Shown here: piece by piece, positions 1 to 40,662 of the stretch | Position numbering within the stretch: the first letter of the stretch is position 1 | Layout of the letters: each line of letters starts with the position of its first letter | DNA from: an uncultured Candidatus Altimarinota bacterium | Lineage (GTDB): Bacteria; Patescibacteriota; Gracilibacteria; BD1-5; UBA2023 | Direction: 5' to 3' | Length of the DNA stretch: 43,995 bases | Assembly (NCBI GenBank): GCA_938036655.1 | Contig: CALHQS010000055.1 | Span: 1-43,995, forward strand | Program-made: the position numbers and the translations under genes | The notes under the pieces: model-generated | Databases searched by the model: none | The model's input: only the letters and a program-made list of their open reading frames with translations | Told to the model about the DNA's origin: nothing

Positions 1-1672
1 CAGGAATTCTCAAAAAACCAATAGCTTGTTCATAAGTTTTGGCTGTCATTTGTTTTTTCAAATCAATACGAGACTTGTAAGGACGATTATTAAAAATCTT
101 TTTGGCAAGTCTTTTATCAATTCCAGAAATATAATTCAAAACATAACTTGAAGCTGCATTTACATTTATTCAGATTTCATTTACCACATCTTCAACGACA
201 TTTTCAAGTTGTTCTTCCAGTTTTTTGGCTGGTACATCATGTTGATACAACCCAACTCCAATCGACCCAACTGGCACTTTTACAAGTTCAGAAAGTGGAT
301 CTATAAATCGTCTTCCCAGAGAAATAGTTCCCCTGTCCAAGCTATCCAAATCAGGAAATTCCTCTTGTGCGATTTTGCTGGCACTGTACACTGAGGCCCC
401 GCTTTCATTCACGATAAAAATATCTTTTGAAGTGATTTCTTGTAGTAATTCTACTGTTTCTTTGCTTCCAGTTCAGTTCCCCACAATTATCACATCAGGA
501 GAATATTTTTTTAAAAATTTTTGTAAAATATCTTTTGCCAAATCTTTTTTGTGTAAATAAATTTTTGTAAAATCCAAAGGATTTCATAAATTATCCAAAA
601 ATGCAATTTTGCATCATGCTGCATATCCTGGATCAATTGCCAAAATATTTTTCCCATATTCTGGTTTTGTCATCAAAAGTTTTTCCAAATTTGTTTGAAA
701 AGCCTTGATTGCATCATCTTCTCAAGTTTCTGATAAATTAGCCCTGATTTCATTTTCTACTGAAGCAAAAAGTGCTTCATATCATTTTTCAAATCATGCC
801 AAAAGTTGCTCTGCAAAAGGATATTTTGTTTTCAAAATTCTTGCATAATGAAATGCTATTCACTCAAAAGTTTTTTCTGTTTTTTCTATTTTAATATTCA
901 AAATTCCCAAGTTTTCCCCACGATTTAAAGCCAAAACTTGATATGGTTTCAGGTATGAAATTTTAGCTGTAAATTCATTATAAATTTCAAATTTTGGGAT
1001 TTGTTCACGATCTTTTTCATTTAATTTTTCCAAAGATTTTTCAGTTTTATATTTTGAAGAAATCTCTCAATATTTATTCAAAGTTTCAATTAAATCTGCT
1101 CTCAAATCAGCATTTGCTGAAATTTCTGCTCAAATAATTTCAATACTTCACTCAATTATTTCCGCAAAAGAAAAATCAGCAAGCAAAGTTTTCAAAACCT
1201 CATCATTTTCAGAAATATTTTTATTTTTCCTGATTTCATCAGCCACAATTTGAAACCCATTTTCAATTGCAATCATTGCTTTTGTTTTTTTCTTTGATTT
1301 GTATGGCTTGTAAATATCTTCTACTTCCTTCAAAGTTTTTGCTTTAAGAATATTTTCTTTCAGTTCATCAGTTAATTTTCCTTGCTCAAAAATACCATTT
1401 AATGCCGTTTTTTTAGCTTCATACAAATTTTCAATTCTTGTTTTTTCTTTCAAAATGTCTCTGATTTGATCTTCATCAAGATTTCCTGTTTTCTCTTTTC
1501 TATAACGAGCAATAAAAGGAACGGTCGCGCCCTCGGCCGTCAGTGCCAAAATAGTTTCCACTTGCGAATTTTGGAGCGTTAAAATTTCTGCGATTTCCAC
1601 CAAATAGTCAGGTTTCTGAATGAGAACAATTTCATTTTCTGTATCGAGATTTTGAGTTGTTTCTGTTGTCAT
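1..1672 (-). CDS. tex: Tex-like transcription accessory protein; C-terminal part lies beyond the window start
   Basis: Track ORFs 170..412 and 1148..1840 share one frame. Tex hallmarks present: ATVPFIARYRKEKTG, SIGVGLYQHDV, and INVNAAS...YEQAIGFLRI after the in-frame TGA at 170-172. The 412-1148 gap contains no track ORF of 60 aa or more; I assume it is broken only by sense TGA codons but did not translate it. ATG at 1670-1672 (MTTETTQ). Confidence 0.85.
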
Positions 1673-1764
1673 AAAAAATGTTAAGATGCGCTCATTATAG
1701 GGATTTTTGCATTTTTTCCAAAAATTTCTGACAGAAATATTACAAGAAAAATACACCAAAATAA

Positions 1765-1786
1765 AAAAAGGCTTTCGCCTTTTTTT
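1765..1786. terminator. Hairpin aaaaaggc-tttc-gccttttt flanked by A and T runs; bidirectional intrinsic terminator
   Basis: Lies immediately after the TAA (1788-1790) of the 1294-aa gene. GC stem with T-run when read on the minus strand. Confidence 0.6.
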
Positions 1787-1787
1787 A

Positions 1788-4700
1788 TTACTTGAAGTTT
1801 CTCCAAGTCTTGAGATTCCATCCGAGACCATTTTCTGCACGCTTCAAGAAGTATCGGATAATTCCGCGTCCTTCATCCGCATCCTTATGGCTGAAGAGCT
1901 CCATTCCGACTGAGATCCATCCGTCTTTGTAAAATGTCTCAAAGATTGGAGCATATTTTCCATCAATCAAGCTGTCCCAAACTGGACCACCAGGCCCACT
2001 TGACGAACGAGTCACAAGAGGAGGTTGTGGCTGTGGCTGTGGTTGTGGAGTTGGAGTTGTTCCATCATTCTTTGTGAGTTGGCCAATGAGTTGTGTGAGT
2101 TCATGTACGAGACCATCACGTTTTGTTACAGTGAGAGTTGCTGTGTCATCAAGAGCTGCTTTGGCTTCAGTAATCTTGTTCTGAAGAGCTGTTTTGTTGG
2201 CATCTGCTACTGTTTTTGGATCATTGAGAGCAGTTTCTGCTTCAGTGATTTTGTTCTGAAGATTAGTTGTGTCGATGGCTGTTGTATCTTCTTTTGTACC
2301 AACAAGCACCACCTGAGTCACTGGCTTCTTGATCACACGCTCTACGGCAGCAGTATGTTTAAGAACTACACCAGTTTTAGCATTTTTGAGATCGCGGTAT
2401 ACGATTTCTTTTTTACCTTTTTGACCTGGCGTTTTGATTTGTTTTTCACCTTTCTTGAGAGTATCAGTCTTTTCTTCAGTGATTTCAAAATTAATTTCTT
2501 CTTCTGTCTTGACAGCATCATACACAGTACGAAGCGTACCAACACGAACGGTTCGTTCTACTGGACGAACATCTGGATTAGCGATTTCGTATTCGATTTC
2601 AAATGCATCTTTGAGTGCTACTGGCATTTTTTCGTAACGAGTCAGATCGTTGATAGTTACCCCTTTCATCGCAATTTCTTTCTTTGATTCGAGTACTTTA
2701 CCCGCAGATGTACCAGTGGACACGATATAATCACCGAGCAAAAGTCCGTCCTTATCGTCTGTAAGATTTCCGAGCTTATAGTAATGAGTTTTGAGATCAG
2801 GATATGGATCAAGTACATTACGACCTCCTTTGTTAGCTGCAGCTATAATGGCATTATTTACTGCGGCCTTACCGACTTTGCGAGCTACTGAGACATTGAC
2901 AAGAGGCTTATCTTCAACTGTCTGTCCGAGTGGAAGATTCTCATCAATGATTGCTGTCATACGAATAGGAAGTTCTTTTGAAGAATCTTCTGTCGTTTCT
3001 TCGGCCATACGGGTTAGAGCAAAGTTTGTACGAGCATCATCCTTAAGAGTGCCCGCTGTAGCCGTTACATCAGCACTGTATTCTGCATCTTCATATGCAT
3101 CCATTCCATCTGTTGAAGTTGCGAGGTTAAGTGGATTTTTGGCAATAAATTCATTGTCACGAGCATAGCGAAGCGTGAACTGACTCGACAATACCCGAAG
3201 TGGCTTCGCTGCCGCAGCTGACGTAAGATCTACGCTATCTACCGTGATTTTGTTTCCCGCAAATACAAACGGCTGAGTGAATTGAAGCATTGATGGGAGA
3301 TTCGATGGCTTTGCACCTGTGTTCATCGTATAACCATTTACTTGCGGTTGCACGGTATGTCCCGTCAAACCAGTTACATTGATAAGAGGTTTAAGCGTGG
3401 CGTATGCTGATACGATTTTCCCCATATCAATCGCGTTACCAGTCATTTCGATTTTTTTGGCATTTGTATTGATCGAAATCACTGATTCTTGATTTGATGA
3501 CTTACCAATTACTGATTCTTTGAATTTGATGTTGTTGTTATTGAATTTGAGAGAACCATGGAATTTGTTCTGTCCCATTTCGGTTGTTTTTCCATCAGTA
3601 GTCGTGAGACCAACATTTCGTGTTGTTTCAGAAATATTGATTGGAGCATATTTTCCTACTTCCGCAACAATGCGATCAACATTTACTATGTTGTTAGTAA
3701 TGCGGATATCACCAGAACCGTATCCAATACCATTAGAGAATTTGCTAAAATCTTTTTGGAATTCTCGCCCAAGTTGCTGCCCATCAAGAGCGCTATTGAT
3801 GATTTTAAAAATATTGTTTGCAGAAACTCCTGAGATATCATTGTTATCGATGATGAGCTCATAATCAAGGTATGGTTCCTGCATACGAACCAACATCGCA
3901 TTGGCAATGTATGATTTTCCGTCGTGCGTGTTTCCTGATTCATCAAGTCCGCGAATCGTGTTGCCACTGATTTCAAAGTGACCTCGTGAACCATCTGTGC
4001 TAAGACGACGAGCCTTTTCGTTTGTCTGCAAATGAATCGCTTCAAACTGAAGATAGTCTCCATGAGGGTCAAATGCCCCATTGAGATGCAAATCATCGCG
4101 TTCCAGACGATTGTGTGTATCCTGGAAAACAGTGTTATTTCGAATCGTTACATTTTCCATTTTGAAAGTACGATTGTACACAGAAATACCAAGCAAACGG
4201 TCACCGTGCGAAATATTGTTTTCAATGAGAATATTGTCACCATCGTGGATATCAAGACCCTTACGGTAGTTGTGGCTTGTGAAGTTGTTGCGGAAAGTAA
4301 TATTGTTGTTCATAGAACCCGCTTCCGAAGCAAAACCATAACCAGTTCCACCAGATCGTGTATGCCCGTTTTCGTATGACACAGAATTACTGATTTCAAA
4401 TCCGTTCTGATATGAAAACTGAACACCCGCTACACGGTTTTGATACAAAATACTGTTTGTAACCTTGTTTCCTTCCATCATGCGAAGCACGCTAGCATCA
4501 GTATAATCACCACATCCTTTGTCATTAAGGCGCGTTATACCTGCAAGATTTGCAGCCACACAATAAGAAATAGAACGAAGTGTTCCACCAATATTAAGTT
4601 TTTTCACACCATTGTATGCTGATGTGAATCGCACACCAGCCTTATTGGCACCAGTCACTTCAACATTATCCACTGTTACATGCTGAGAATCACTCACATG

Positions 4701-5672
4701 GATACCGTCTACTTTTCCATGATATGGGAACCCTTTCACATAAAAGGCTGGATCAAGGTCGCCATTGCGCTTGATGCGAAGTGAAAAATCTTTCACAAAG
4801 AAATTGTCATGATCTTCCACGAGAAGCACCGCATGGTCACGATTATCAGTATCGTTTTCATTTGGATTCCATGGTTCACCAAACTGTACAAGGCTTGTTG
4901 TAATAGTTGTTGTTGCAAGACCATCACCGAAGAATCCTTTTACATGAGGCAATTCTTTGTCGATTTTAATCTGCTGGAAAAGCCCATCCTTTCGATAAAT
5001 TGGGAAGATAATTCCGTGATGTTTTTTCTTATCAGAATCAGTATATTCTACTACGCCTTCTTCTACATAACTAATTTTTTTAAATTCTTCAGGAGTAATA
5101 TTTGCTGGATTAGCAACACCAGCGAGTGTCGCTCCACTAACTTTCTGACCAAGTCCACTATCGTATGTACGAAGTTCGTAGTGGTCAAGCACTGCACCAT
5201 CACGGGCAATATTTACCACACCAGAAACTTGCACCGCTACACCTCGAGTTTCCTGACCATTCTGAACAATGATCGTATTATTCGCGGCCTGAAGCGTTGC
5301 TACTACTGCTGGAGTATCATCCTGATTATCTTCTGTATTAAGTCCAAAATCACGAGCGTCAAGATAGAAAACATTATTTTCTTTATCAAAATATACTGGA
5401 TAATTCACTTCTGAACCATCAGCTGTTTTTACAGTCACACCAGAAGTGGTATCAATTGGTGTTGCCTGAGGTTTTGCTGTTGTAGTAGCTGCTGGTGCTG
5501 CTGGAGTTAGTGTCGCAGGAACAGCTACTACTGGGTCACTTTCTGCGGCCAATACTGAATAGGTTACATGGTTAGAAAGAATTGGCGATGCCATAACTGC
5601 GGCGATCATTGCCATACTTCCAAGACGGGCGTTCATTCTAGTAGAACGAGGCTCTGCTGTCTGTTTTTTCAT
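1788..5672 (-). CDS. Large secreted surface protein: signal peptide, right-handed beta-helix (pectate-lyase-like) repeats, G5 domain, helical repeats, PQ linker, basic C-terminal domain
   Basis: Uninterrupted 1294-aa ORF. N-terminus MKKQTAEPRSTRMNARLGSMAMIAAVMASP. Beta-helix motifs such as NNITFRNNFTSHNYRKGLDIHDGDNILIENNISHG. G5-like block EINFEITEEKTDTLKKGEKQIKTPGQKGKKEIVYRD...VVLVGTKE. Repeats LQNKITEAETAL / LQNKITEAKAAL. PQPQPQPQP linker. Visibly more GC-rich than its neighbours. Confidence 0.85.
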   Translation of the reverse strand: MKKQTAEPRSTRMNARLGSMAMIAAVMASPILSNHVTYSVLAAESDPVVAVPATLTPAAPAATTTAKPQATPIDTTSGVTVKTADGSEVNYPVYFDKENNVFYLDARDFGLNTEDNQDDTPAVVATLQAANNTIIVQNGQETRGVAVQVSGVVNIARDGAVLDHYELRTYDSGLGQKVSGATLAGVANPANITPEEFKKISYVEEGVVEYTDSDKKKHHGIIFPIYRKDGLFQQIKIDKELPHVKGFFGDGLATTTITTSLVQFGEPWNPNENDTDNRDHAVLLVEDHDNFFVKDFSLRIKRNGDLDPAFYVKGFPYHGKVDGIHVSDSQHVTVDNVEVTGANKAGVRFTSAYNGVKKLNIGGTLRSISYCVAANLAGITRLNDKGCGDYTDASVLRMMEGNKVTNSILYQNRVAGVQFSYQNGFEISNSVSYENGHTRSGGTGYGFASEAGSMNNNITFRNNFTSHNYRKGLDIHDGDNILIENNISHGDRLLGISVYNRTFKMENVTIRNNTVFQDTHNRLERDDLHLNGAFDPHGDYLQFEAIHLQTNEKARRLSTDGSRGHFEISGNTIRGLDESGNTHDGKSYIANAMLVRMQEPYLDYELIIDNNDISGVSANNIFKIINSALDGQQLGREFQKDFSKFSNGIGYGSGDIRITNNIVNVDRIVAEVGKYAPINISETTRNVGLTTTDGKTTEMGQNKFHGSLKFNNNNIKFKESVIGKSSNQESVISINTNAKKIEMTGNAIDMGKIVSAYATLKPLINVTGLTGHTVQPQVNGYTMNTGAKPSNLPSMLQFTQPFVFAGNKITVDSVDLTSAAAAKPLRVLSSQFTLRYARDNEFIAKNPLNLATSTDGMDAYEDAEYSADVTATAGTLKDDARTNFALTRMAEETTEDSSKELPIRMTAIIDENLPLGQTVEDKPLVNVSVARKVGKAAVNNAIIAAANKGGRNVLDPYPDLKTHYYKLGNLTDDKDGLLLGDYIVSTGTSAGKVLESKKEIAMKGVTINDLTRYEKMPVALKDAFEIEYEIANPDVRPVERTVRVGTLRTVYDAVKTEEEINFEITEEKTDTLKKGEKQIKTPGQKGKKEIVYRDLKNAKTGVVLKHTAAVERVIKKPVTQVVLVGTKEDTTAIDTTNLQNKITEAETALNDPKTVADANKTALQNKITEAKAALDDTATLTVTKRDGLVHELTQLIGQLTKNDGTTPTPQPQPQPQPPLVTRSSSGPGGPVWDSLIDGKYAPIFETFYKDGWISVGMELFSHKDADEGRGIIRYFLKRAENGLGWNLKTWRNFK
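2023..2048 (-). repeat. Hexanucleotide microsatellite (TGTGGY x4 on the plus strand) encoding the PQPQPQPQ linker
   Basis: ggttgtggctgtggctgtggttgtgg read directly from the sequence, inside the surface-protein CDS. Confidence 0.7.
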
Positions 5673-5708
5673 ACTTTTTCATAAGGGGTAAGAGATAAAA
5701 GCAAAAAA

Positions 5709-5737
5709 AGTATAGCATATAAAAAAATAATTTGCAA
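5709..5737 (-). promoter_or_regulatory. Candidate sigma70-type promoter of the surface-protein gene (TTGCAA-N17-TATACT on the minus strand)
   Basis: -35 at 5732-5737, -10 is the reverse complement of agtata at 5709-5714, spacer 17 nt. About 40 nt upstream of the ATG at 5672. Confidence 0.4.
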
Positions 5738-5793
5738 AAATACAGCATTTTTTATGAGAAAAAGTCTCAAATCCCTTACAACTGACAAAATAA

Positions 5794-5817
5794 AAACTAT
5801 CGATTTTTTGATAGTTT
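5794..5817 (-). terminator. Hairpin aaactatc-N8-gatagttt, followed by a T-rich tract on the minus strand
   Basis: 8-bp perfect inverted repeat between the CRISPR array and the surface-protein promoter. Confidence 0.35.
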
Positions 5818-5940
5818 GAATAATGTTAGTTCAATATAAGATAATTCTGATAAAATAGCGCTTAAAAACTCTTTTTTAAAATTATTTTGAGAAAAATATG
5901 AGCAATTTTTGTAAATTTTTACAACTTTGCAAAATAAAAA

Positions 5941-5962
5941 AATCCCCTATTTTTGTGGGGGT
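5941..5962 (-). terminator. GC-clamped hairpin (cccc...ggggg) followed by a T-run on the minus strand, downstream of the CRISPR array
   Basis: Minus-strand reading is aaacccccacaaaaataggggattttttatttt. Lies about 155 nt beyond the degenerate terminal repeat. Confidence 0.4.
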
Positions 5963-6117
5963 TTATAATATTTTGAAATAAGATAAAACAACATCACACA
6001 AGAATTGGTGTTACGATAAAAAGCCAAAGTGCTACAGGTGCACTACGAAAATCAGAAAATGGTCGTGGGAGTAATCACAAAAAATCAGGGAAAAAATTTG
6101 TCATACAATAAAATATG

Positions 6118-6715
6118 ATTGGAAACAGTAGAAATTTACTAATGAAATTTGAGGAAAAAAAGATGATTAACAAGCGGATATCTACAACAGTAGAAATTTA
6201 CTAATGAAATTTGAGCACTTGGATGCAAGAAAAATAGAATAATCTACAACAGTAGAAATTTACTAATGAAATTTGAGTTATTAGTTCGAAGCGAGAAGAG
6301 TTTTTATCTACAACAGTAGAAATTTACTAATGAAATTTGAGATGAGAACAATGATACGGAATCGATCATCTACAACAGTAGAAATTTACTAATGAAATTT
6401 GAGTGCTCAAGATACTATAGGAAGTCTTGCATCTACAACAGTAGAAATTTACTAATGAAATTTGAGCTTCCCTGCTTGGCTGGTTTTCGCGCATCTACAA
6501 CAGTAGAAATTTACTAATGAAATTTGAGTTCTTTTGTGTAGTAAAGGCCACCGAATCTACAACAGTAGAAATTTACTAATGAAATTTGAGTAAGCCCGAT
6601 AAATATATGCTTGACATATCTACAACAGTAGAAATTTACTAATGAAATTTGAGTATTCCTTCTGCGGTAGGGTACCAGCATCTACAAAAGTAGAAATTTA
6701 CTAATGAAATTTGAG
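6118..6715 (-). CRISPR. CRISPR array with Cas12a/type V-A-like repeats: 10 repeats of 36 bp, 9 spacers of 26-28 bp
   Basis: Plus-strand repeat ATCTACAACAGTAGAAATTTACTAATGAAATTTGAG starts at 6118, 6180, 6242, 6306, 6368, 6431, 6493, 6555, 6618 and 6680. The minus-strand reading CTCAAATTTCATTAGTAAATTTCTACTGTTGTAGAT ends in AAUUUCUACUGUUGUAGAU. The repeat at 6118 is degenerate (4 mismatches), marking the distal end. The repeat at 6680 has one C>A change in the predicted loop. All spacers are unique. Confidence 0.95.
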
Positions 6716-6928
6716 AGCGAAAAAGTGATATTTAAGCCAAAAAGATGCAATATGCCCCCAATTGAACATAGACTTCTTGGCTTAAAATCGTTTCATAAAA
6801 AAATTAAGACTGAGGTTTGCATTCCTCCAAATGTCATTACCAAAATTTCCACCGAAGGTGTTTGTTGAATTTGGGAATGTTAAAGAACTATTGTTAGTAT
6901 ACAGAAAAATAATTTTTTGCAAATTTTT
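6716..6928 (-). promoter_or_regulatory. CRISPR leader with a candidate promoter (TTTGCA-N16-TATACT on the minus strand, 6896-6923)
   Basis: 213-bp non-coding stretch between the rsmA stop (TAG 6929-6931) and the first full repeat. Also contains the inverted repeat TAAGCCAA...TTGGCTTA (approx. 6738-6789). Confidence 0.35.
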
Positions 6929-7738
6929 CTAATTTTTCAGATTTTTCAAACAATCCAAAATCTTTTCCCAATCCTCCAAACGAATCGCTTCAGCACGAAC
7001 CTGTTCAGAATATCACAAATTTTTTAAATTCTCCAAAATTTTTTCATCAAAAATCCCAGCAGACTTGAGATTGAAGGCCAAAGTTTTTCGCGGATGTTTG
7101 AAAATCTTGTCCCAAAATTCAAGTTTTTGCAAATCAGTATCAATATCACGATTTTTTTTCGGGAAAAATTTGAGCACAATAGAATCCACTTTTGGCGCTG
7201 GATCAAAACTTTCACTCGGAACCAAGCAAATTTTTTCAATATTTTCGCATGCAAGCCACATCGCAAGCGAAAAATACGAATGTTGCGTTTTTTTACCTTT
7301 GGTGGCAAGAATTTTTTCGCCCACTTCTTTTTGCATCAGAATCACCATTTCTTCGGGTACAGCAAAATTTTGCGGATACAAAAAATGAAACAAAATCGGG
7401 CTCGTGATATAATACGGAATATTGGCAATGAGCGAATATTTTTCAAAATTTGGAGAAAATTTCAGAACATCAGCATGATGCAAAGTGATGCGATCTGAAA
7501 AATCTGCCCAATCCGTAATCATTTTTCCGCGAAGAATCGCAATCATATCAGAATCAAGTTCGACCAAATCAATTTTTTTGGGATTTTCTTGCAACAAAAA
7601 ATCCGTCAAAGCTCCGTATCACGGCCCCACTTCGACGATATTTTTTTCAGTGATTTCCGTTGCAGAACTGATAGCTATGAGCGCATCAATATCCACGAGA
7701 AAATTTTGCCCGAGTGATTTTTTGGCACGAATTTTCAT
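6929..7738 (-). CDS. rsmA: 16S rRNA (adenine1518/1519-N6)-dimethyltransferase RsmA/KsgA
   Basis: MKIRAKKSLGQNFLVD...VEVGP[TGA]YGALT (SAM motif GPGxG), then IANIPYYITSPILFHFL. A second sense TGA at 7013-7015 extends the ORF to TAG at 6929, giving a typical C-terminus (RAEAIRLEDWEKI). Confidence 0.9.
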
Positions 7739-7739
7739 A

Positions 7740-8477
7740 TTATTTTACGGCTTGACGAATATAATGAGTAATTTTGGAAGCGGAACGGAAAACAATTTTT
7801 TGATAATTGTGAAATTTTTCCAAAATCGCACGATAATTGCCCTGAATACCCTCCATATAATAACTTCGGTCATTTTCAAAACTTTTATAAATTCCCTGCT
7901 GCATCAAACTATTGCCCAGATTCATCCACGCGTTTTTCTTTTTCTGCGCCACAAGCATACAAATTTTCTGCGGATACGCGTCTGATGAAATTCCAAATTT
8001 CCGATTTTGTGAATTGGAATCCAAAAAATTGGAAATCCTAGAAAATTGACAAATCGTATCATAAAAATACGCGAGCGATTTTTGTGTCTCGTCGCCCTTC
8101 CCGAGGATGCACGAACCATACGCCTGCGTCCATGCAACCGGATCTTTATCACGATAACGCTGCAATTGCTGCATATATTGCTTTACCTTGGTATCAGCCT
8201 CATTCATGAAAAAATTGGTCGCAATATAATATGCGAGGCGTTCGTTCGTGAGCTCAACACGATCTTCAAGCGCAAATTCACCCGCTGGACACTGAAAATC
8301 TTCAATTGTATTGGAAGTGCGATTGGCACGAGCTTCCAGACACTGATCGATTTTAGAAACCACTTCATCGGCTGTTGGCTTAATTTCAGAAAAATTTGGG
8401 CATTGCGGTGCGGCTGCAAAAATATTTTGCACACCAAAAAATGAGAAAAAAATCGCGATAAAAAAAATTTTTTTCAT
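7740..8477 (-). CDS. Secreted hypothetical protein (signal peptide, several Cys)
   Basis: ATG at 8475-8477 gives MKKIFFIAIFFSFFGVQNIFAAAP. 245-aa ORF ending in TAA at 7740-7742. No family recognised. Confidence 0.6.
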   Translation of the reverse strand: MKKIFFIAIFFSFFGVQNIFAAAPQCPNFSEIKPTADEVVSKIDQCLEARANRTSNTIEDFQCPAGEFALEDRVELTNERLAYYIATNFFMNEADTKVKQYMQQLQRYRDKDPVAWTQAYGSCILGKGDETQKSLAYFYDTICQFSRISNFLDSNSQNRKFGISSDAYPQKICMLVAQKKKNAWMNLGNSLMQQGIYKSFENDRSYYMEGIQGNYRAILEKFHNYQKIVFRSASKITHYIRQAVK

Positions 8478-8478
8478 A

Positions 8479-8724
8479 TTATTTTTTTCGGTTAAAAAGG
8501 CGCGCGAAAAATCCTTTCTTGGCTGATTTTTCAGCCGTTTTTTCTGGATTTCGATTTTTTTCGTTGGCTTCATTTTTTTCGTTCGCATCGCGAAGTTTTT
8601 TCACGCCATAGAGCGACGCGACCACGCCACCCAAAACCGCACCCGTAATGACCGCGTCCATTTTTTTGATGCCGCGTTTTACCACTGCATCATCTTCCGT
8701 TTTTTTAGATTTTTTGAAAAACAT
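8479..8724 (-). CDS. Small single-pass membrane protein, hypothetical
   Basis: 81-aa ORF with one hydrophobic helix (AVITGAVLGGVVASLYGV) and a Lys/Glu-rich tail. Tightly packed between neighbouring genes. Confidence 0.5.
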   Translation of the reverse strand: MFFKKSKKTEDDAVVKRGIKKMDAVITGAVLGGVVASLYGVKKLRDANEKNEANEKNRNPEKTAEKSAKKGFFARLFNRKK

Positions 8725-8726
8725 AA

Positions 8727-9191
8727 CTAATTTTTAGTTGCATCTATTTTAATAGATTTTGAGATCAATGTCAATTTTGGAATCAAAATTGTAATCACAT
8801 TGTGTTCCACAGATGCGGAAATTTTGTCAAAAGCAAGATTTTCCGGCAAAATAATTGACCGAGAAAACGCTCCGTAAAAACATTCTTCCACAAGCATTCG
8901 GCGCGCCTCCATATAAATCGGATTTTCACGACGATTGCCAGAAATCGTCAAAATATTTCGCGAAAGGCCAATATCCACTTCCGAAGGATCAACACCCGCA
9001 ACCGGCGCTACAATGACGATAGCATCAGATAAATCAAGAATATCAACCGCGATTTGTCCAATATCCGTCTCATGATCGCGTTCCGCGTCCATTTCTACTT
9101 CGATGGCTTCGGCTTGGGAAGTCTCGATAGTACGAACTTCCATTCGTTCGCCCGATTCATTTTCATTAGAAACTCAGAAAACTTTAAACAT
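8727..9191 (-). CDS. Hsp20/alpha-crystallin family small heat-shock protein
   Basis: IAVDILDLSDAIVIVAPVAGVDPSEVDIGLSRNILTISGNR...FYGAFSRSIILPENL...VEHNVITILIPK. The start is either ATG 9191 (which needs a sense TGA) or 9143. Confidence 0.75.
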
Positions 9192-9200
9192 AATTTTTTG

Positions 9201-10286
9201 TTAGGATTTAGAAATTTTTGGATTTTTGGAAAGAATTTTTTTGAACTGCTCAAAAATTACCACTTCATCAAAAATATTTTTTTCCGGAAGATTGAAATCA
9301 TGATTTTTTTCGATTTGAGAAAAAATTTCCGACAATTTTTCCAGATGATTTGGATGAATTTTTATTGCGTGCGGATAAAAATCAAACGCGCGAATATCGG
9401 ACAAAATCATGAGCAAATCGTGCGAATTGGCAAGTTCAACATTCACTTTAGTCGTATTGTACGCTCCGACAAAAATCCACGATTTTGCCTTTTGGTAAAG
9501 CATTTCTTGCGAATGAATATCGAGAATTCCTGTGATGTGCACCCATTTTTCCAGTTTTTCGCGACGCAAAATTTCGGTCAAAAATTTAAGTGATTTGGCG
9601 GAATTTCCGTGCAAAATCAAGTGCGTTTTTCCGTGCAAATCGTGGATAAATTTTCCAAATTCATGAAGCAAAATCTCAATATTGGATTCTGATCAAAAAG
9701 TCGCATCGTACAAGAAAAAATTTTCTGGCAAATTATTTTGCGCGAATAATTGCTTATTTGGTGGGATTTTTTCTATCTCAACAAACGGCAAAATATCGAT
9801 TTTCTGTTCATGGATATTCCAGAGTTCGACGAGTTCATTACCCGCAAAAAAACTCGGCACGATAAAATGGGAAGAATTTTTGAGGAGGCGCTTGATCTCG
9901 AATTCGCGTTCTTTTCGTCGCAAAATATTGGCGTTCGTTTCGTTGTCGTAGAGCCAACGACCCATATCCATCACAAAAGTCAGCGTCGGAATACTCGAAT
10001 CATACGGCGCGTATCGCGAAAAATTGATAGCACGAAAAATCTCATTTGTGTTCGTGGAGGCAATTTTTTTAGAAGAAGAAAACCAGCCGACTGGCTTCAC
10101 ACGGAGAAAATTTTCTCATTCAGGCGCCTCCTGCTGATCAAAAATCAAAAAAGTACAAGTATCGTGCGGATTATATTTTTTCCATTTTTTCGTCCAGTTT
10201 TGCGCGTAACGGATGATTACCGCATCTTCGGGATGTCGACTTCTGATATCAACAATCAGGTGCATAGCATAAATTATTTTTCTCAT
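9201..10286 (-). CDS. Glycosyltransferase (GT-B fold, family 1/4-like)
   Basis: Three track ORFs (9201..9671, 9693..10100, 10116..10304) share one frame and are joined by two sense TGAs. The C-terminal domain resembles GT1 (THLILHGNS...WVHITG...YQKAKSWIFVG). Confidence 0.65.
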
Positions 10287-37500: not shown

Positions 37501-39090
37501 TTATTTTTCATCAGATTTTTTCTCAGATTGTGCTTGCTTCATAAATGGGAAATACTGCACTTCACGAATTGGCTTTCCTTCCAAGAATGCAAAAAGTCGC
37601 TCACCAAAGCCAAAACCACAAGTTGGCGGCATTCCGTGTTCCAACATTTCGATAAATTCCCAATCTGGCATCATCGCTTCATCATCACCACCTTCGAGCA
37701 TTTCTTGTTGTTTTTCAAAACGCTCACGCTGGTCGATTGGATCATTCAATTCGCTGTAACCATTCCCCACTTCTGAACCTGCAATGATTGGTTGGAATCG
37801 TTCCACTTTTCCTGGGAATTTTTCTGAAACCTTGGCGAGTGGCGAAATCAATTCTGGATGATTCACCAAAAAAGCTGGTCCAGCAATCTGTTTACGCACA
37901 TATTTCCAGAGCGTATCAGTCAATCGTTCACGATTAGTTCCTTCGTATTTTACACCCAATTCCTCAAGCTTGTGGCGCATTTCGTCATCAGTCGCTGTCA
38001 AAAGATTAATCCCAGTGCGTTCTTCTACCGCTGTCAAATAGTCAATTCGTGGCCATTCTCCGGCAAGATCGAATTCAAGACCCTTATGAGAAAATTTGGT
38101 TGTTCCATACACAGATTTTGCGATATGTTGGTACAATCCCTGCACAAAGCGCATTCCATCCTCATAATCAGCATACGCCCAATAAAATTCGAGATTCGTA
38201 AATTCTTGCAGATGGTCTGGGCTTGACCCTTCATTTCGGTACGCACGACCAATTTCAAAAGTTTTTGGAAAGCCTCCGGCCATCAATCTTTTTTGCCACA
38301 ATTCTCCGATAGAAATTCGCAAAAATACGTCTACATCATAGTCGTTGTGATGCGTTGCAAATGGGCGCGCCTCTGCCCCACCCGTTGTATGTTCAAGCGT
38401 TGGCGTTTCCACTTCCAAAAATCCGTGCTGCTTCAAATATTCTCGCGTTGCATCCCAGAATTTTGACTTTCGCACAAACATGGCGCGCAACTCATCGTCA
38501 GTCGCCATATCAAGATATCGCTTGCGGTAGCGCTCTTCATCACTTTCAATTCCGTGGAATTTTTCTGGAAGCGGCCGAATCGCTTTCGTCAAAAATGAAA
38601 ATTCTTCTGCAAAAATCGTCAATTCCCCCTTGTGTGTATAAAATAATTCTCCGCGCACACCGATAAAATCTCCCATATCCACGAGCTTTTCTGCAAATTT
38701 GTACGCAGACATTTCTTCGTTTTCAGAATTTTTGAGAATTTCGAGCGATTGTCCTCCAACGCGAATTTTACAATTTTCACGAGAAAAAAGAATTTGAATT
38801 TTTCCCGTTCCATCGTTAATGGTAGCAAAACAAATTTTCCCAAAACTTCGGTGCAACATCACGCGACCAGCCACAGAAAATTCTGATTTTGGTGACGCCA
38901 CAACATCAGTCACATCGCGAAGTGGACTCGTCTCGCCTTCATCCAATGATGATTTAAATTTTTCAAGAATTTGTGCAATTTGATGATTGGCATCAAATTT
39001 TGTTGCAAATGGATTCACGCCAAAATCCTTAATTTTTTCCAGTTTTTTGATACGATCAAGCGTTTCGTTTGAATAATTTGGTGTTGTCAT
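37501..39090 (-). CDS. lysS: Lysine--tRNA ligase, class II
   Basis: Full 529-aa ORF. OB-fold N-domain, class II motifs (FLEVETP, YRNEGSSPDHLQEFTNLE, GFGFGERL). Confidence 0.95.
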   Translation of the reverse strand: MTTPNYSNETLDRIKKLEKIKDFGVNPFATKFDANHQIAQILEKFKSSLDEGETSPLRDVTDVVASPKSEFSVAGRVMLHRSFGKICFATINDGTGKIQILFSRENCKIRVGGQSLEILKNSENEEMSAYKFAEKLVDMGDFIGVRGELFYTHKGELTIFAEEFSFLTKAIRPLPEKFHGIESDEERYRKRYLDMATDDELRAMFVRKSKFWDATREYLKQHGFLEVETPTLEHTTGGAEARPFATHHNDYDVDVFLRISIGELWQKRLMAGGFPKTFEIGRAYRNEGSSPDHLQEFTNLEFYWAYADYEDGMRFVQGLYQHIAKSVYGTTKFSHKGLEFDLAGEWPRIDYLTAVEERTGINLLTATDDEMRHKLEELGVKYEGTNRERLTDTLWKYVRKQIAGPAFLVNHPELISPLAKVSEKFPGKVERFQPIIAGSEVGNGYSELNDPIDQRERFEKQQEMLEGGDDEAMMPDWEFIEMLEHGMPPTCGFGFGERLFAFLEGKPIREVQYFPFMKQAQSEKKSDEK

Positions 39091-39297
39091 AAAAATTTTT
39101 AAAACAATTCAACTATAATGAATTTTAAGGGAAAATCAAGGGGAAATTTTGAACAATCACAAAAAATCTGAAAAAAATTTTCTACCCAAAAAAAATTCCA
39201 AGAAAAAAGAAAAAATTTGCGTTTTTATTTTGCTTTTTTGAAAAATTTGTATATATTGGAAAATAGCCTTTTTAACAGAATTCTTAACAGAAAAAAT

Positions 39298-40662
39298 ATG
39301 AATATTCCAAACAGAGTGAAGGGTACGCAGGATATTTTTGGTGAGTACCAGCGATATTTCACATTTCTCAAAAAACTCGCGCGACACGAATTCCGAACGA
39401 ACGGATTTACGCGCATTTCAACACCAATTTTGGAACACACAGACCTCATCGCGCGATCAAGCGGTGCGTCAAGTGATGTTGTTTCCAAAGAAATGTACGA
39501 AATGACCGACAAAGGCGGGCGTTCGCTCGTGATGAAGCCAGAGGGAACGGCTGGTGTGATGCGCGCATATCTCGAACATATGCTCGATGAACCACAGCCT
39601 GTGTATCTGTATTACATTGAACCACATTTTCGATACGATCGCCCGCAGAAAGGTCGATATCGTCAGTTTCATCAGATTGGTGGAGAAATCATCGGCGAAG
39701 AAGATCCAATTTTGGATGCCAAAATGATTCACATCATGAAAAATCTCATGGATTCTGCGGGACTTGCTGGCACTTATACGATCAAAATCAATTCTCTTGG
39801 CGTAGAAAAAGAACGCGAAAAATATCTCATCGAATTGCAGTCATTTTTTGAAGGACGTAAACATTTGCTCGATGAAACAGATTTGCACCGACTCGCGACA
39901 AATCCACTTCGAATTTTGGATTCCAAAAATCCTGATGTTCAAGAACTTCTCAAAATCGCTCCAAAAATTACTGATTTTCTCAAGGGAGATTCGAAAAAAT
40001 TTTATGAAAGTGTGAAAGAATATTTGACAATTCTTGGCGTAGAATTTATAGAAGATCCGACGCTCGTTCGTGGTTTGGATTATTATTCTCACACGGTTTG
40101 GGAATTTGTAGACGGATCTGGGCGCACGCAGGACGCCTTTGGTGGTGGTGGGCGCTATAATTCGCTCGCAAAATCTATCGGCTACAAAAATGAAGTTCCA
40201 GCCGTTGGGTTTGCGCTCGGTGTGGAACGACTCATTGAAGCCATGATGGCACACGGTGTAAAACTCAAAAACAAAGATTCTATTCACCTCTATATCGTGC
40301 AACTTGGTGACGACGCGAAAAAACTTGCACTTCCTCTCAATCTCGAATCCCGAAAAAAAGGCATCAATTCTCTTTTGTCGCTCGGAACGCCATCTATCAA
40401 AGTTCAACTCAAAAAAGCCAATCGCGTGGGTGCTCGATTTGTGGCAATTATCGGCATTATGGAAGCCAAAAAAGGCGTTTGTCAACTCAAAGATATGGAA
40501 AAAGGAACGCAGGAAGAATGTCATCTTGACGATGTGATTCATCGCGTAGTAGAGGCTATCGGAACGGAAAATCTTTCTTTTTATCATCCATCATTTGACT
40601 GGGTGATTGAACCACCAAAAATGGAAGAAAATCCTGAAAATCCAGAAAATATCACGGAATAA
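39298..40662 (+). CDS. hisS: Histidine--tRNA ligase
   Basis: MNIPNRVKGTQDIFGEY..., YYIEPHFRYDRPQKGRYRQFHQIG, GGGGRYNSL, and a C-terminal anticodon-binding domain. The ATG at 39298 is preferred over the longer track ORF. Confidence 0.93.
   Translation: MNIPNRVKGTQDIFGEYQRYFTFLKKLARHEFRTNGFTRISTPILEHTDLIARSSGASSDVVSKEMYEMTDKGGRSLVMKPEGTAGVMRAYLEHMLDEPQPVYLYYIEPHFRYDRPQKGRYRQFHQIGGEIIGEEDPILDAKMIHIMKNLMDSAGLAGTYTIKINSLGVEKEREKYLIELQSFFEGRKHLLDETDLHRLATNPLRILDSKNPDVQELLKIAPKITDFLKGDSKKFYESVKEYLTILGVEFIEDPTLVRGLDYYSHTVWEFVDGSGRTQDAFGGGGRYNSLAKSIGYKNEVPAVGFALGVERLIEAMMAHGVKLKNKDSIHLYIVQLGDDAKKLALPLNLESRKKGINSLLSLGTPSIKVQLKKANRVGARFVAIIGIMEAKKGVCQLKDMEKGTQEECHLDDVIHRVVEAIGTENLSFYHPSFDWVIEPPKMEENPENPENITE

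Follow-up and report, generated by a model that had tools for sequence, protein, structure and literature searches.

How an array of CRISPR repeats with no cas gene in its neighborhood might function, and which effector it serves, is the question raised by positions 6118–6715 of the stretch of bacterial DNA analyzed here (43,995 nucleotides, hereafter the window). A preliminary description of this locus, made from the sequence alone, counted ten 36-bp repeats and nine unique 26–28-bp spacers, and this count was confirmed in the sequence, with the repeats recurring at 62–64-nt spacing and the spacers of 26–28 nt lying between them. The array is laid out as follows.

6118..6715, minus strand: CRISPR array, with its leader end at 6715 and its trailer end at 6118
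6118–6153, 6180–6215, 6242–6277, 6306–6341, 6368–6403: repeat copies 1–5
6431–6466, 6493–6528, 6555–6590, 6618–6653, 6680–6715: repeat copies 6–10
6680..6715, minus strand: leader-proximal repeat with a loop variant, a single change at 6688 (UGUU to UUUU) that keeps the stem
6118..6153, minus strand: terminal truncated repeat, the first 28 nt being repeat and the remainder conserved flank

Read on the minus strand, the 36-nt repeat is CTCAAATTTCATTAGTAAATTTCTACTGTTGTAGAT. Over its 3′ 19 nt, it matches exactly the short FnCpf1 repeat AATTTCTACTGTTGTAGAT as published in PMC5716609, and the earlier statement that the repeat ends in the Francisella Cas12a handle was thus borne out; the long FnCpf1 repeat GTCTAAGAACTTTAAATAATTTCTACTGTTGTAGAT, given in the same paper, is equal in length to the window repeat. 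The minimum-free-energy fold of the repeat comprises a 5-bp UCUAC/GUAGA stem and a 4-nt loop—that is, the type V-A handle—and the same fold is predicted for both the UUUU loop variant of the window and a UGUG loop variant found in relatives. The loop variant of the leader-proximal repeat, already noticed in the preliminary description, is private to the window sequence, the near-identical contigs L121, L123, and L138 lacking it. Rfam at gathering thresholds returned only a tRNA, and the failure of any CRISPR-DR family to reach its cutoff is to be read as uninformative rather than as a negative result. As a side observation, three Leptospira phages in INPHARED (KF114879.1, KF114880.1, and KX656785.1) each contain, in unannotated DNA, a single exact 27-nt match to the 3′ end region of the repeat, which could be a solitary repeat unit, and a Leptospiraceae genome also has an array carrying this Cas12a handle (L078).

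The polarity of the array had been assigned from a degenerate terminal repeat at 6118 and a non-coding leader at 6716–6928. The polarity itself held, with new spacers being added at the leader end among related strains (see below), but the terminal repeat proved to be truncated at 28 nt rather than degenerate, the rest being flank. The flank part (TTTCCAAT...) is also found in strains without an array, and the homology of the window to such array-less strains restarts at window position 6128. Similarly, a conserved leader is indeed present, but it covers 6716–6889 (175 nt) and not the whole intergenic stretch. The leader and the features around it are listed here.

6716..6889, minus strand: conserved 175-nt leader; the leaders that follow cas2 in ten prfA-linked loci are 95–97% identical to it
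6896..6923, minus strand: promoter-like TTTGCA-16-TATACT just upstream of the conserved leader, a putative site
6932..7738, minus strand: rsmA, directly upstream of the leader (Pfam RrnaAD, E=3.6e-38); context, not a cas gene
6028..6044, minus strand: hairpin with a T-run after it, resembling a terminator and lying ~75 nt beyond the trailer end of the array, the putative pre-crRNA end
1788..5672, minus strand: gene for a 1294-aa beta-helix/G5 surface protein, downstream of the array; context

The window leader is 95–100% identical to other rsmA-linked leaders, and the leader is the sole non-array sequence common to rsmA-linked and prfA-linked loci. The promoter-like site matches at 9/12 positions, which is no better than in shuffled sequence; a similar TTGATT-N16-TACAAT was observed at the equivalent relative place in a cas-linked locus, L086, described below. 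Two terminator-like hairpins were found in the array region, against 0.4 expected. With respect to the flanks, the array was correctly described as lying between rsmA and a surface-protein gene, Pfam RrnaAD being found on one side and the beta-helix/G5 protein on the other. The core genes around the array—rsmA, HSP20, gatB, and tex—stand in conserved order in every record, and no integrase, transposase, or phage genes adjoin it. The gene slot downstream of the array is hypervariable (window 1788–5672 compared with L133–L142 and L163–L182), with unrelated 1300–1372-aa proteins, split genes, or nothing before tex occupying it elsewhere.

TGA is read as sense in the window, where total ORF length about doubles under tables 4 and 25, and two in-frame TGA codons lie in rsmA. 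The code-25 genome proposed in the preliminary description is therefore upheld, TGA also being found at conserved Gly of the related Cas12a. An origin of the surface-protein gene as foreign DNA, considered on account of its 0 TGA in 1295 codons, was dropped, because TGA makes up only ~3% of the Gly codons in other window genes, so that a count of zero is unremarkable.

Searches by tblastn under table 25 found no match to Cas12a, Cas4, Cas1, or Cas2 in the window, in agreement with what had been described, and none in L121, an oral-metagenome contig that is 99.9% identical to the window and reaches 8.2 kb past its left end (52 kb seen in total). No cas pseudogene remnants were found near the array. 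One ORF of Cas12a-like size (1028 aa, at 37501–40587 on the minus strand) was rejected, its C-terminal half being a lysyl-tRNA synthetase and its N-terminal extension being spurious; this read-through shows stop-poor code-25 DNA inflating ORF lengths. A homolog search with the Cas12a fragment of Candidatus Gracilibacteria bacterium GN02-873 returned nothing above 60% identity, and it is unusable for the samples of the window because table-11 gene calling fragments the TGA-containing gene.

The cognate cas genes were found in a related genome. Scanning of one genome per species for the 19-nt handle gave at least 120 loci; among the matches listed, a V-A Cas homolog lies in the same block of ≤8 kb in 50 of 73 loci with at least three handle copies, and the full 36-nt repeat occurs only in GN02-873 (one genome per species). 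At 648–656 kb of MORC01000001.1 in this genome (GCA_003260345.1; locus L086), the identical repeat lies downstream of cas12a-cas4-cas1-cas2, with ORFs passing the Pfam thresholds for Cpf1 PI (122 bits), RuvC_1 (260 bits), NUC, Cas4, Cas1, and Cas2. The identical repeat adjoins cas12a not only in L086 but also in L128, L131, and L159. Full-length Cas12a, taken from L131, is 1236 aa long and matches FnCas12a structures from end to end (E ~1e-151), and its in-frame TGA codons coincide with conserved Gly residues, as in LLPGPNKMLP, indicating that the gene belongs to a code-25 genome. In L086, the interval of 175 nt that separates cas2 from the first repeat is ~96% (95.5%) identical to window 6716–6889. 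The preliminary assignment to type V-A accordingly stands on the identical repeat next to cas12a in relatives, on the canonical handle and stem, and on the TTTV protospacers described below. An unannotated ORF lies between cas12a and cas4 (L086, 2020–2590; L159, reverse complement, 5666–6240), and is possibly one of the 'unannotated ORFs inside V-A operons' to which PMC10746230 refers.

The same contig of GN02-873 (683,334 bp) also carries an rsmA–leader–array arrangement at ~76.6–77.1 kb. This locus (L173, 64.7–79.2 kb of MORC01000001.1) was found by means of the window GatB; it contains gatB, HSP20, rsmA, the leader, and an 8-repeat array, and it is ~94% identical to the window over 14.8 kb. 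GN02-873 therefore holds an rsmA-linked array at ~77 kb and a V-A operon with an array of its own at ~652 kb, ~576 kb apart, and its two leaders are 98.9% identical to each other. Both locus types are likewise represented in the metagenome assembly OEJT01 (L129 and L132). With two arrays and a cas operon in GN02-873, the window array is not isolated at the level of the lineage; a true orphan would have neither cas genes nor a cas-adjacent array of the same repeat in its genome, and GN02-873 has both. The preliminary description had offered service in trans by a distant locus as one possibility and had proposed a search for cas genes and further arrays with the same repeat, which were found in GN02-873 at ~652 kb. 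The homologous array and complete operon on one contig, the near-identical leaders of that genome, and the leader-end turnover and TTTV PAMs set out below all favor this possibility. Two further observations concern the assemblies and arrays themselves. One spacer recurs 4–5 times in each of L049 (MORC01000005.1) and L125 (s145 and s174). In GN02-873, the prfA flank seen on contig C1 occurs again on contig C5, accompanied there by another array; either strain heterogeneity in the assembly or a real duplication could account for this.

The rsmA site was compared across 29 distinct records obtained from RsmA, HSP20, and GatB look-ups and from a leader scan. An array is present in 23 of them, and these arrays comprise 118 unique spacers in no fewer than 13 sets. 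The other six (L134–L137, L168, and L181) have neither leader nor array; an unrelated 1.09-kb cassette replaces window 6129–6941, with breakpoints in the last codons of rsmA and in the interior of the truncated terminal repeat. Several of the arrays are nested, as seen in these spacer orders.

L133, leader to trailer: s17 s18 s19
L139, leader to trailer: s20 s21 s22, then s17–19
L173 (GN02-873), leader to trailer: s89, then s20–22, then s17–19
L140, leader to trailer: s23–s29, then s17–19

Novelty at the leader end on top of shared trailer-end spacers was observed across L133, L139, L173, L140, L141, and L171, and this combination is the signature of ongoing acquisition. Other pairs at the rsmA site have only the trailer-most spacer in common. 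Furthermore, s56–s58 occur consecutively and in the same order in both an rsmA-linked array (L164) and a cas-linked array (L086) of different strains, indicating that array segments are exchanged between the two loci by recombination. The nine spacers of the window are unchanged in four other contigs (L121, L123, and L138/L182), which says little about turnover because these contigs are 99.9% identical and come largely from one cohort.

Targets were sought by searching the 330 spacers of both arrays against all loci gathered, after masking of the arrays. Matches to prophage-like DNA adjacent to prfA, in L143, L146, L147, and L161, were obtained for 14 spacers. A 5′-TTTV motif lies directly upstream, on the spacer-sense strand, for 11 of these 14 (background 3.4%; binomial P=2e-14), and position −1 of the 14 protospacers is never T. 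One of the matched spacers belongs to the window.

6529..6554, minus strand: spacer 3, TCGGTGGCCTTTACTACACAAAAGAA, matching L161 19227–19252 at 26/26 positions with the 5′ flank TTTA

The 5′ TTTV that the preliminary description had recommended looking for beside spacer targets was found for this window spacer as well as for the lineage. The target of spacer 3 is a 289-aa ORF that scores 29.8 bits against Pfam Zot (cutoff 20.3), also matches the PHROGs families 'Zot-like toxin' and 'protein I of M13', and is open only if TGA is a sense codon; the protein was found to have no relative in IMG/VR. This Zot/pI-like ATPase belongs to an inovirus-like integrated element at L161 13,700–21,080, together with ORFs of 388, 272, and 597 aa, and TGA must again be read as sense. 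The element and an IS30-type transposase stand in place of cas4 and cas12a in L161, and seven spacers from other strains, window spacer 3 included, target the element. A prophage-like block (DUF1064, PDDEXK_1, AAA_24, and a DNA methylase) lies at ~800–9,500, upstream of prfA, in L143, L146, L147, and L161, replacing CLIPPER-CorA-VanY genes in some strains, and is itself targeted by seven spacers. For one spacer, s172, L146 has the PAM TTTC, whereas L147 and L143 show TTGA in its place, possibly through an escape mutation. The remaining eight window spacers have no target in INPHARED (BLAST of the array) or among the loci gathered, and window spacers 1–6 have no exact match in IMG/VR. The 36-nt repeat is absent from the 2.9 million IMG/VR contigs, and BLAST against INPHARED found no copy of the window array, only short partial matches to the 3′ part of the repeat. 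An anti-cas array, as known for type I-F in E. coli, was considered and rejected, since no spacer matches any cas gene.

The effector gene itself is frequently missing from the related strains. PrfA look-ups gave 17 complete prfA-linked loci, among which cas12a is present only in L159, and the addition of loci from the leader scan brought the number of resolvable loci to 22. Here, cas12a is present in six and absent from 16, the array being kept, whereas cas1 and cas2 are kept in all 22. The cas12a-less loci are L143–L146, L150, L153–L158, L160–L162, L183, and L184, and were compared with L159, L086, L128, and L131. In the most frequent allele, a clean deletion of 4.4 kb takes away cas12a, the unannotated ORF, and the first ~23 codons of cas4; its junction is free of N runs and was recovered by different assemblers from different sources. 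At least three further cas12a-less alleles exist, and in one of the cas12a-less loci (L153) the whole of cas4 is retained. Among loci sharing the same deletion junction, L146 carries a spacer backbone alone, L144 the backbone plus s241–244, and L143 the backbone plus s271–273, the additions being at the leader end. These spacer orders point to continued adaptation in cas12a-less strains in the absence of the effector, without amounting to proof. Because cas12a is absent from 16 of the 22 related loci, the effector may be missing from the window strain as well; the array could then be neither processed nor put to use.

Taken together, the window array is most probably (at a probability of roughly 0.8) a genuine type V-A array, namely an additional array, remote from the cas genes, of the V-A system carried by a human oral Gracilibacteria lineage related to GN02-873. 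The array would be transcribed on the minus strand from the leader (6716–6889 and the AT-rich stretch above it), Cas12a, needing no tracrRNA, would cut the pre-crRNA upstream of the AAUUUCUACUGUUGUAGAU handle, and the resulting crRNAs, expected to be ~42–44 nt long, would direct Cas12a to DNA with a 5′-TTTV PAM. Cas1-Cas2(-Cas4) would recognize the near-identical leader and insert new spacers at the leader–repeat junction, with all Cas proteins being supplied in trans by the prfA-linked cas12a-cas4-cas1-cas2 operon. The targets would be elements, prophage-like or inovirus-like, that circulate among the bacteria of the same population. The sequences directly show the array with its leader, the identity of both to a cas-adjacent copy in one related genome, the polarized turnover of spacers, and protospacers with TTTV; transcription, processing, and interference, as well as retention of the effector by the window strain, are inferred.

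Several other explanations bear on the same evidence. If the array were a dead relic of a former V-A locus between rsmA and the surface-protein gene, inactive throughout the lineage, then the leader abutting rsmA where cas2 would be expected, and the 52 kb around the array being free of cas genes, would be readily understood; however, cas pseudogene remnants are lacking, the repeats are not degenerate, and GN02-873 combines the same cas-less arrangement with a full cas operon elsewhere. The 118 different spacers among strains at the site, with additions at the leader end, tell in the same direction, and the relic reading is already contradicted by this polarized turnover, so that we regard it as very improbable. 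Horizontal acquisition, which the preliminary description had allowed for, was not upheld. Transfer on a phage, plasmid, or other mobile element, in the manner of a virus-borne mini-array, could draw on the insertion/deletion polymorphism of array and leader (the 1.09-kb cassette in 6/29 records) and on the three consecutive spacers common to both array loci, which show that recombination moves segments, but the array occupies one conserved chromosomal site in 23/29 records, its core-gene flanks keep their order everywhere, mobile-element genes do not adjoin it, and the virus collections hold neither the repeat (IMG/VR) nor a copy of the array (INPHARED); we consider such a transfer extremely improbable. 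That the repeats serve an effector other than Cas12a, or that the feature is not CRISPR at all, is scarcely credible: the silence of the Rfam CRISPR-DR families at gathering score could be cited in its favor, but Cas12a adjoins the identical repeat, the PAMs are TTTV, and the handle and stem are canonical for V-A.

A more serious alternative is that the array is functionally stranded, the window strain belonging to the cas12a-less majority; the array could then be transcribed, and perhaps gain spacers through Cas1-Cas2, but without processing or interference. This has a substantial chance of being correct, at somewhat less than even odds, given that cas12a is absent from 16/22 prfA-linked loci, mostly by a clean 4.4-kb deletion recovered by several assemblers, and that the window spacer set is unchanged in four other contigs. 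Against it, cas1 and cas2 are kept in all 22 related loci, a cas12a-positive genome with the same rsmA-linked array exists (GN02-873), and the repeats are intact save for one loop SNP while the leader is 95–100% conserved, which argues that the array has not decayed. A broader hypothesis, which we put forward as speculative and on balance doubtful, is that cas12a has been lost in most strains by several independent deletions, yet cas1-cas2 and both arrays persist, gain leader-end spacers, and swap blocks. The window array would then be a memory without a resident effector, useful if cas12a is regained from co-circulating strains, or would have an effector-independent role.

As regards significance, the practical value of the favored reading, a second V-A array of an oral Gracilibacteria lineage, lies in a host–virus link: the spacers connect uncultured oral Gracilibacteria with an inovirus-like element and with a prophage, neither of which is otherwise present in IMG/VR or INPHARED. 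They also yield, in silico, a TTTV PAM for a Cas12a of a code-25 genome. Of greater interest, at the level of the population, is the frequent deletion of the effector from strains that keep the adaptation genes and two arrays that are still diversifying. If this is true, a common human oral symbiont would provide a natural system for studying why CRISPR memory outlasts interference.

Compared with known systems, the closest counterpart is the prfA-linked V-A locus of GN02-873, which has the identical 36-nt repeat, the 175-nt leader (95.5%), code 25, and, like the window, a truncated terminal repeat at the end of an array with spacers of 25–29 nt. The two differ in context, the GN02-873 array following cas12a-cas4-cas1-cas2 with a prfA flank and the window array following rsmA with no cas neighbor, and also in spacer contents. 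The system of Francisella novicida U112 (FnCas12a/FnCpf1) shares with the window the 36-nt repeat length, the identical last 19 nt, the 5-bp stem, and the UGUU loop, and with the window lineage a T-rich 5′ PAM and a Cas12a to which the related protein aligns end to end, by way of FnCas12a structures. The 5′ 17 nt of the repeat are unlike those of Francisella, however (CTCAAATTTCATTAGTA against GTCTAAGAACTTTAAAT). The Francisella array adjoins its own cas operon; the window array, in contrast, belongs to a lineage in which it is cas-distal by hundreds of kb, as in GN02-873, and in which TGA encodes Gly.

A class of arrays located at a distance from cas genes has been described before (PMC8616872). 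Like the cas-distal and orphan arrays of Shmakov et al., the window array is far from cas genes and shares its repeat with a cas-adjacent array in a related genome; it is of type V-A, whereas that comparison concerns class 1. In E. coli, as in the window lineage, cognate cas genes have been lost in some strains, but the I-F orphan arrays of E. coli target cas genes, and no spacer of the window lineage does. Gracilibacteria and Absconditabacteria rely almost exclusively on V-A systems, according to Liu et al. (mBio 2023, PMC10746230), and the systems described there are of the same phylum, subtype, and habitat as that of the window. With V-A in Gracilibacteria published and cas-distal arrays forming a known class, the window array is in itself ordinary, and the finding as given carries little weight, being one more cas-distal array in a documented subtype and phylum. 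That survey scored complete systems per genome, and its main sections do not feature an rsmA-linked second array or the deletion polymorphism of cas12a.
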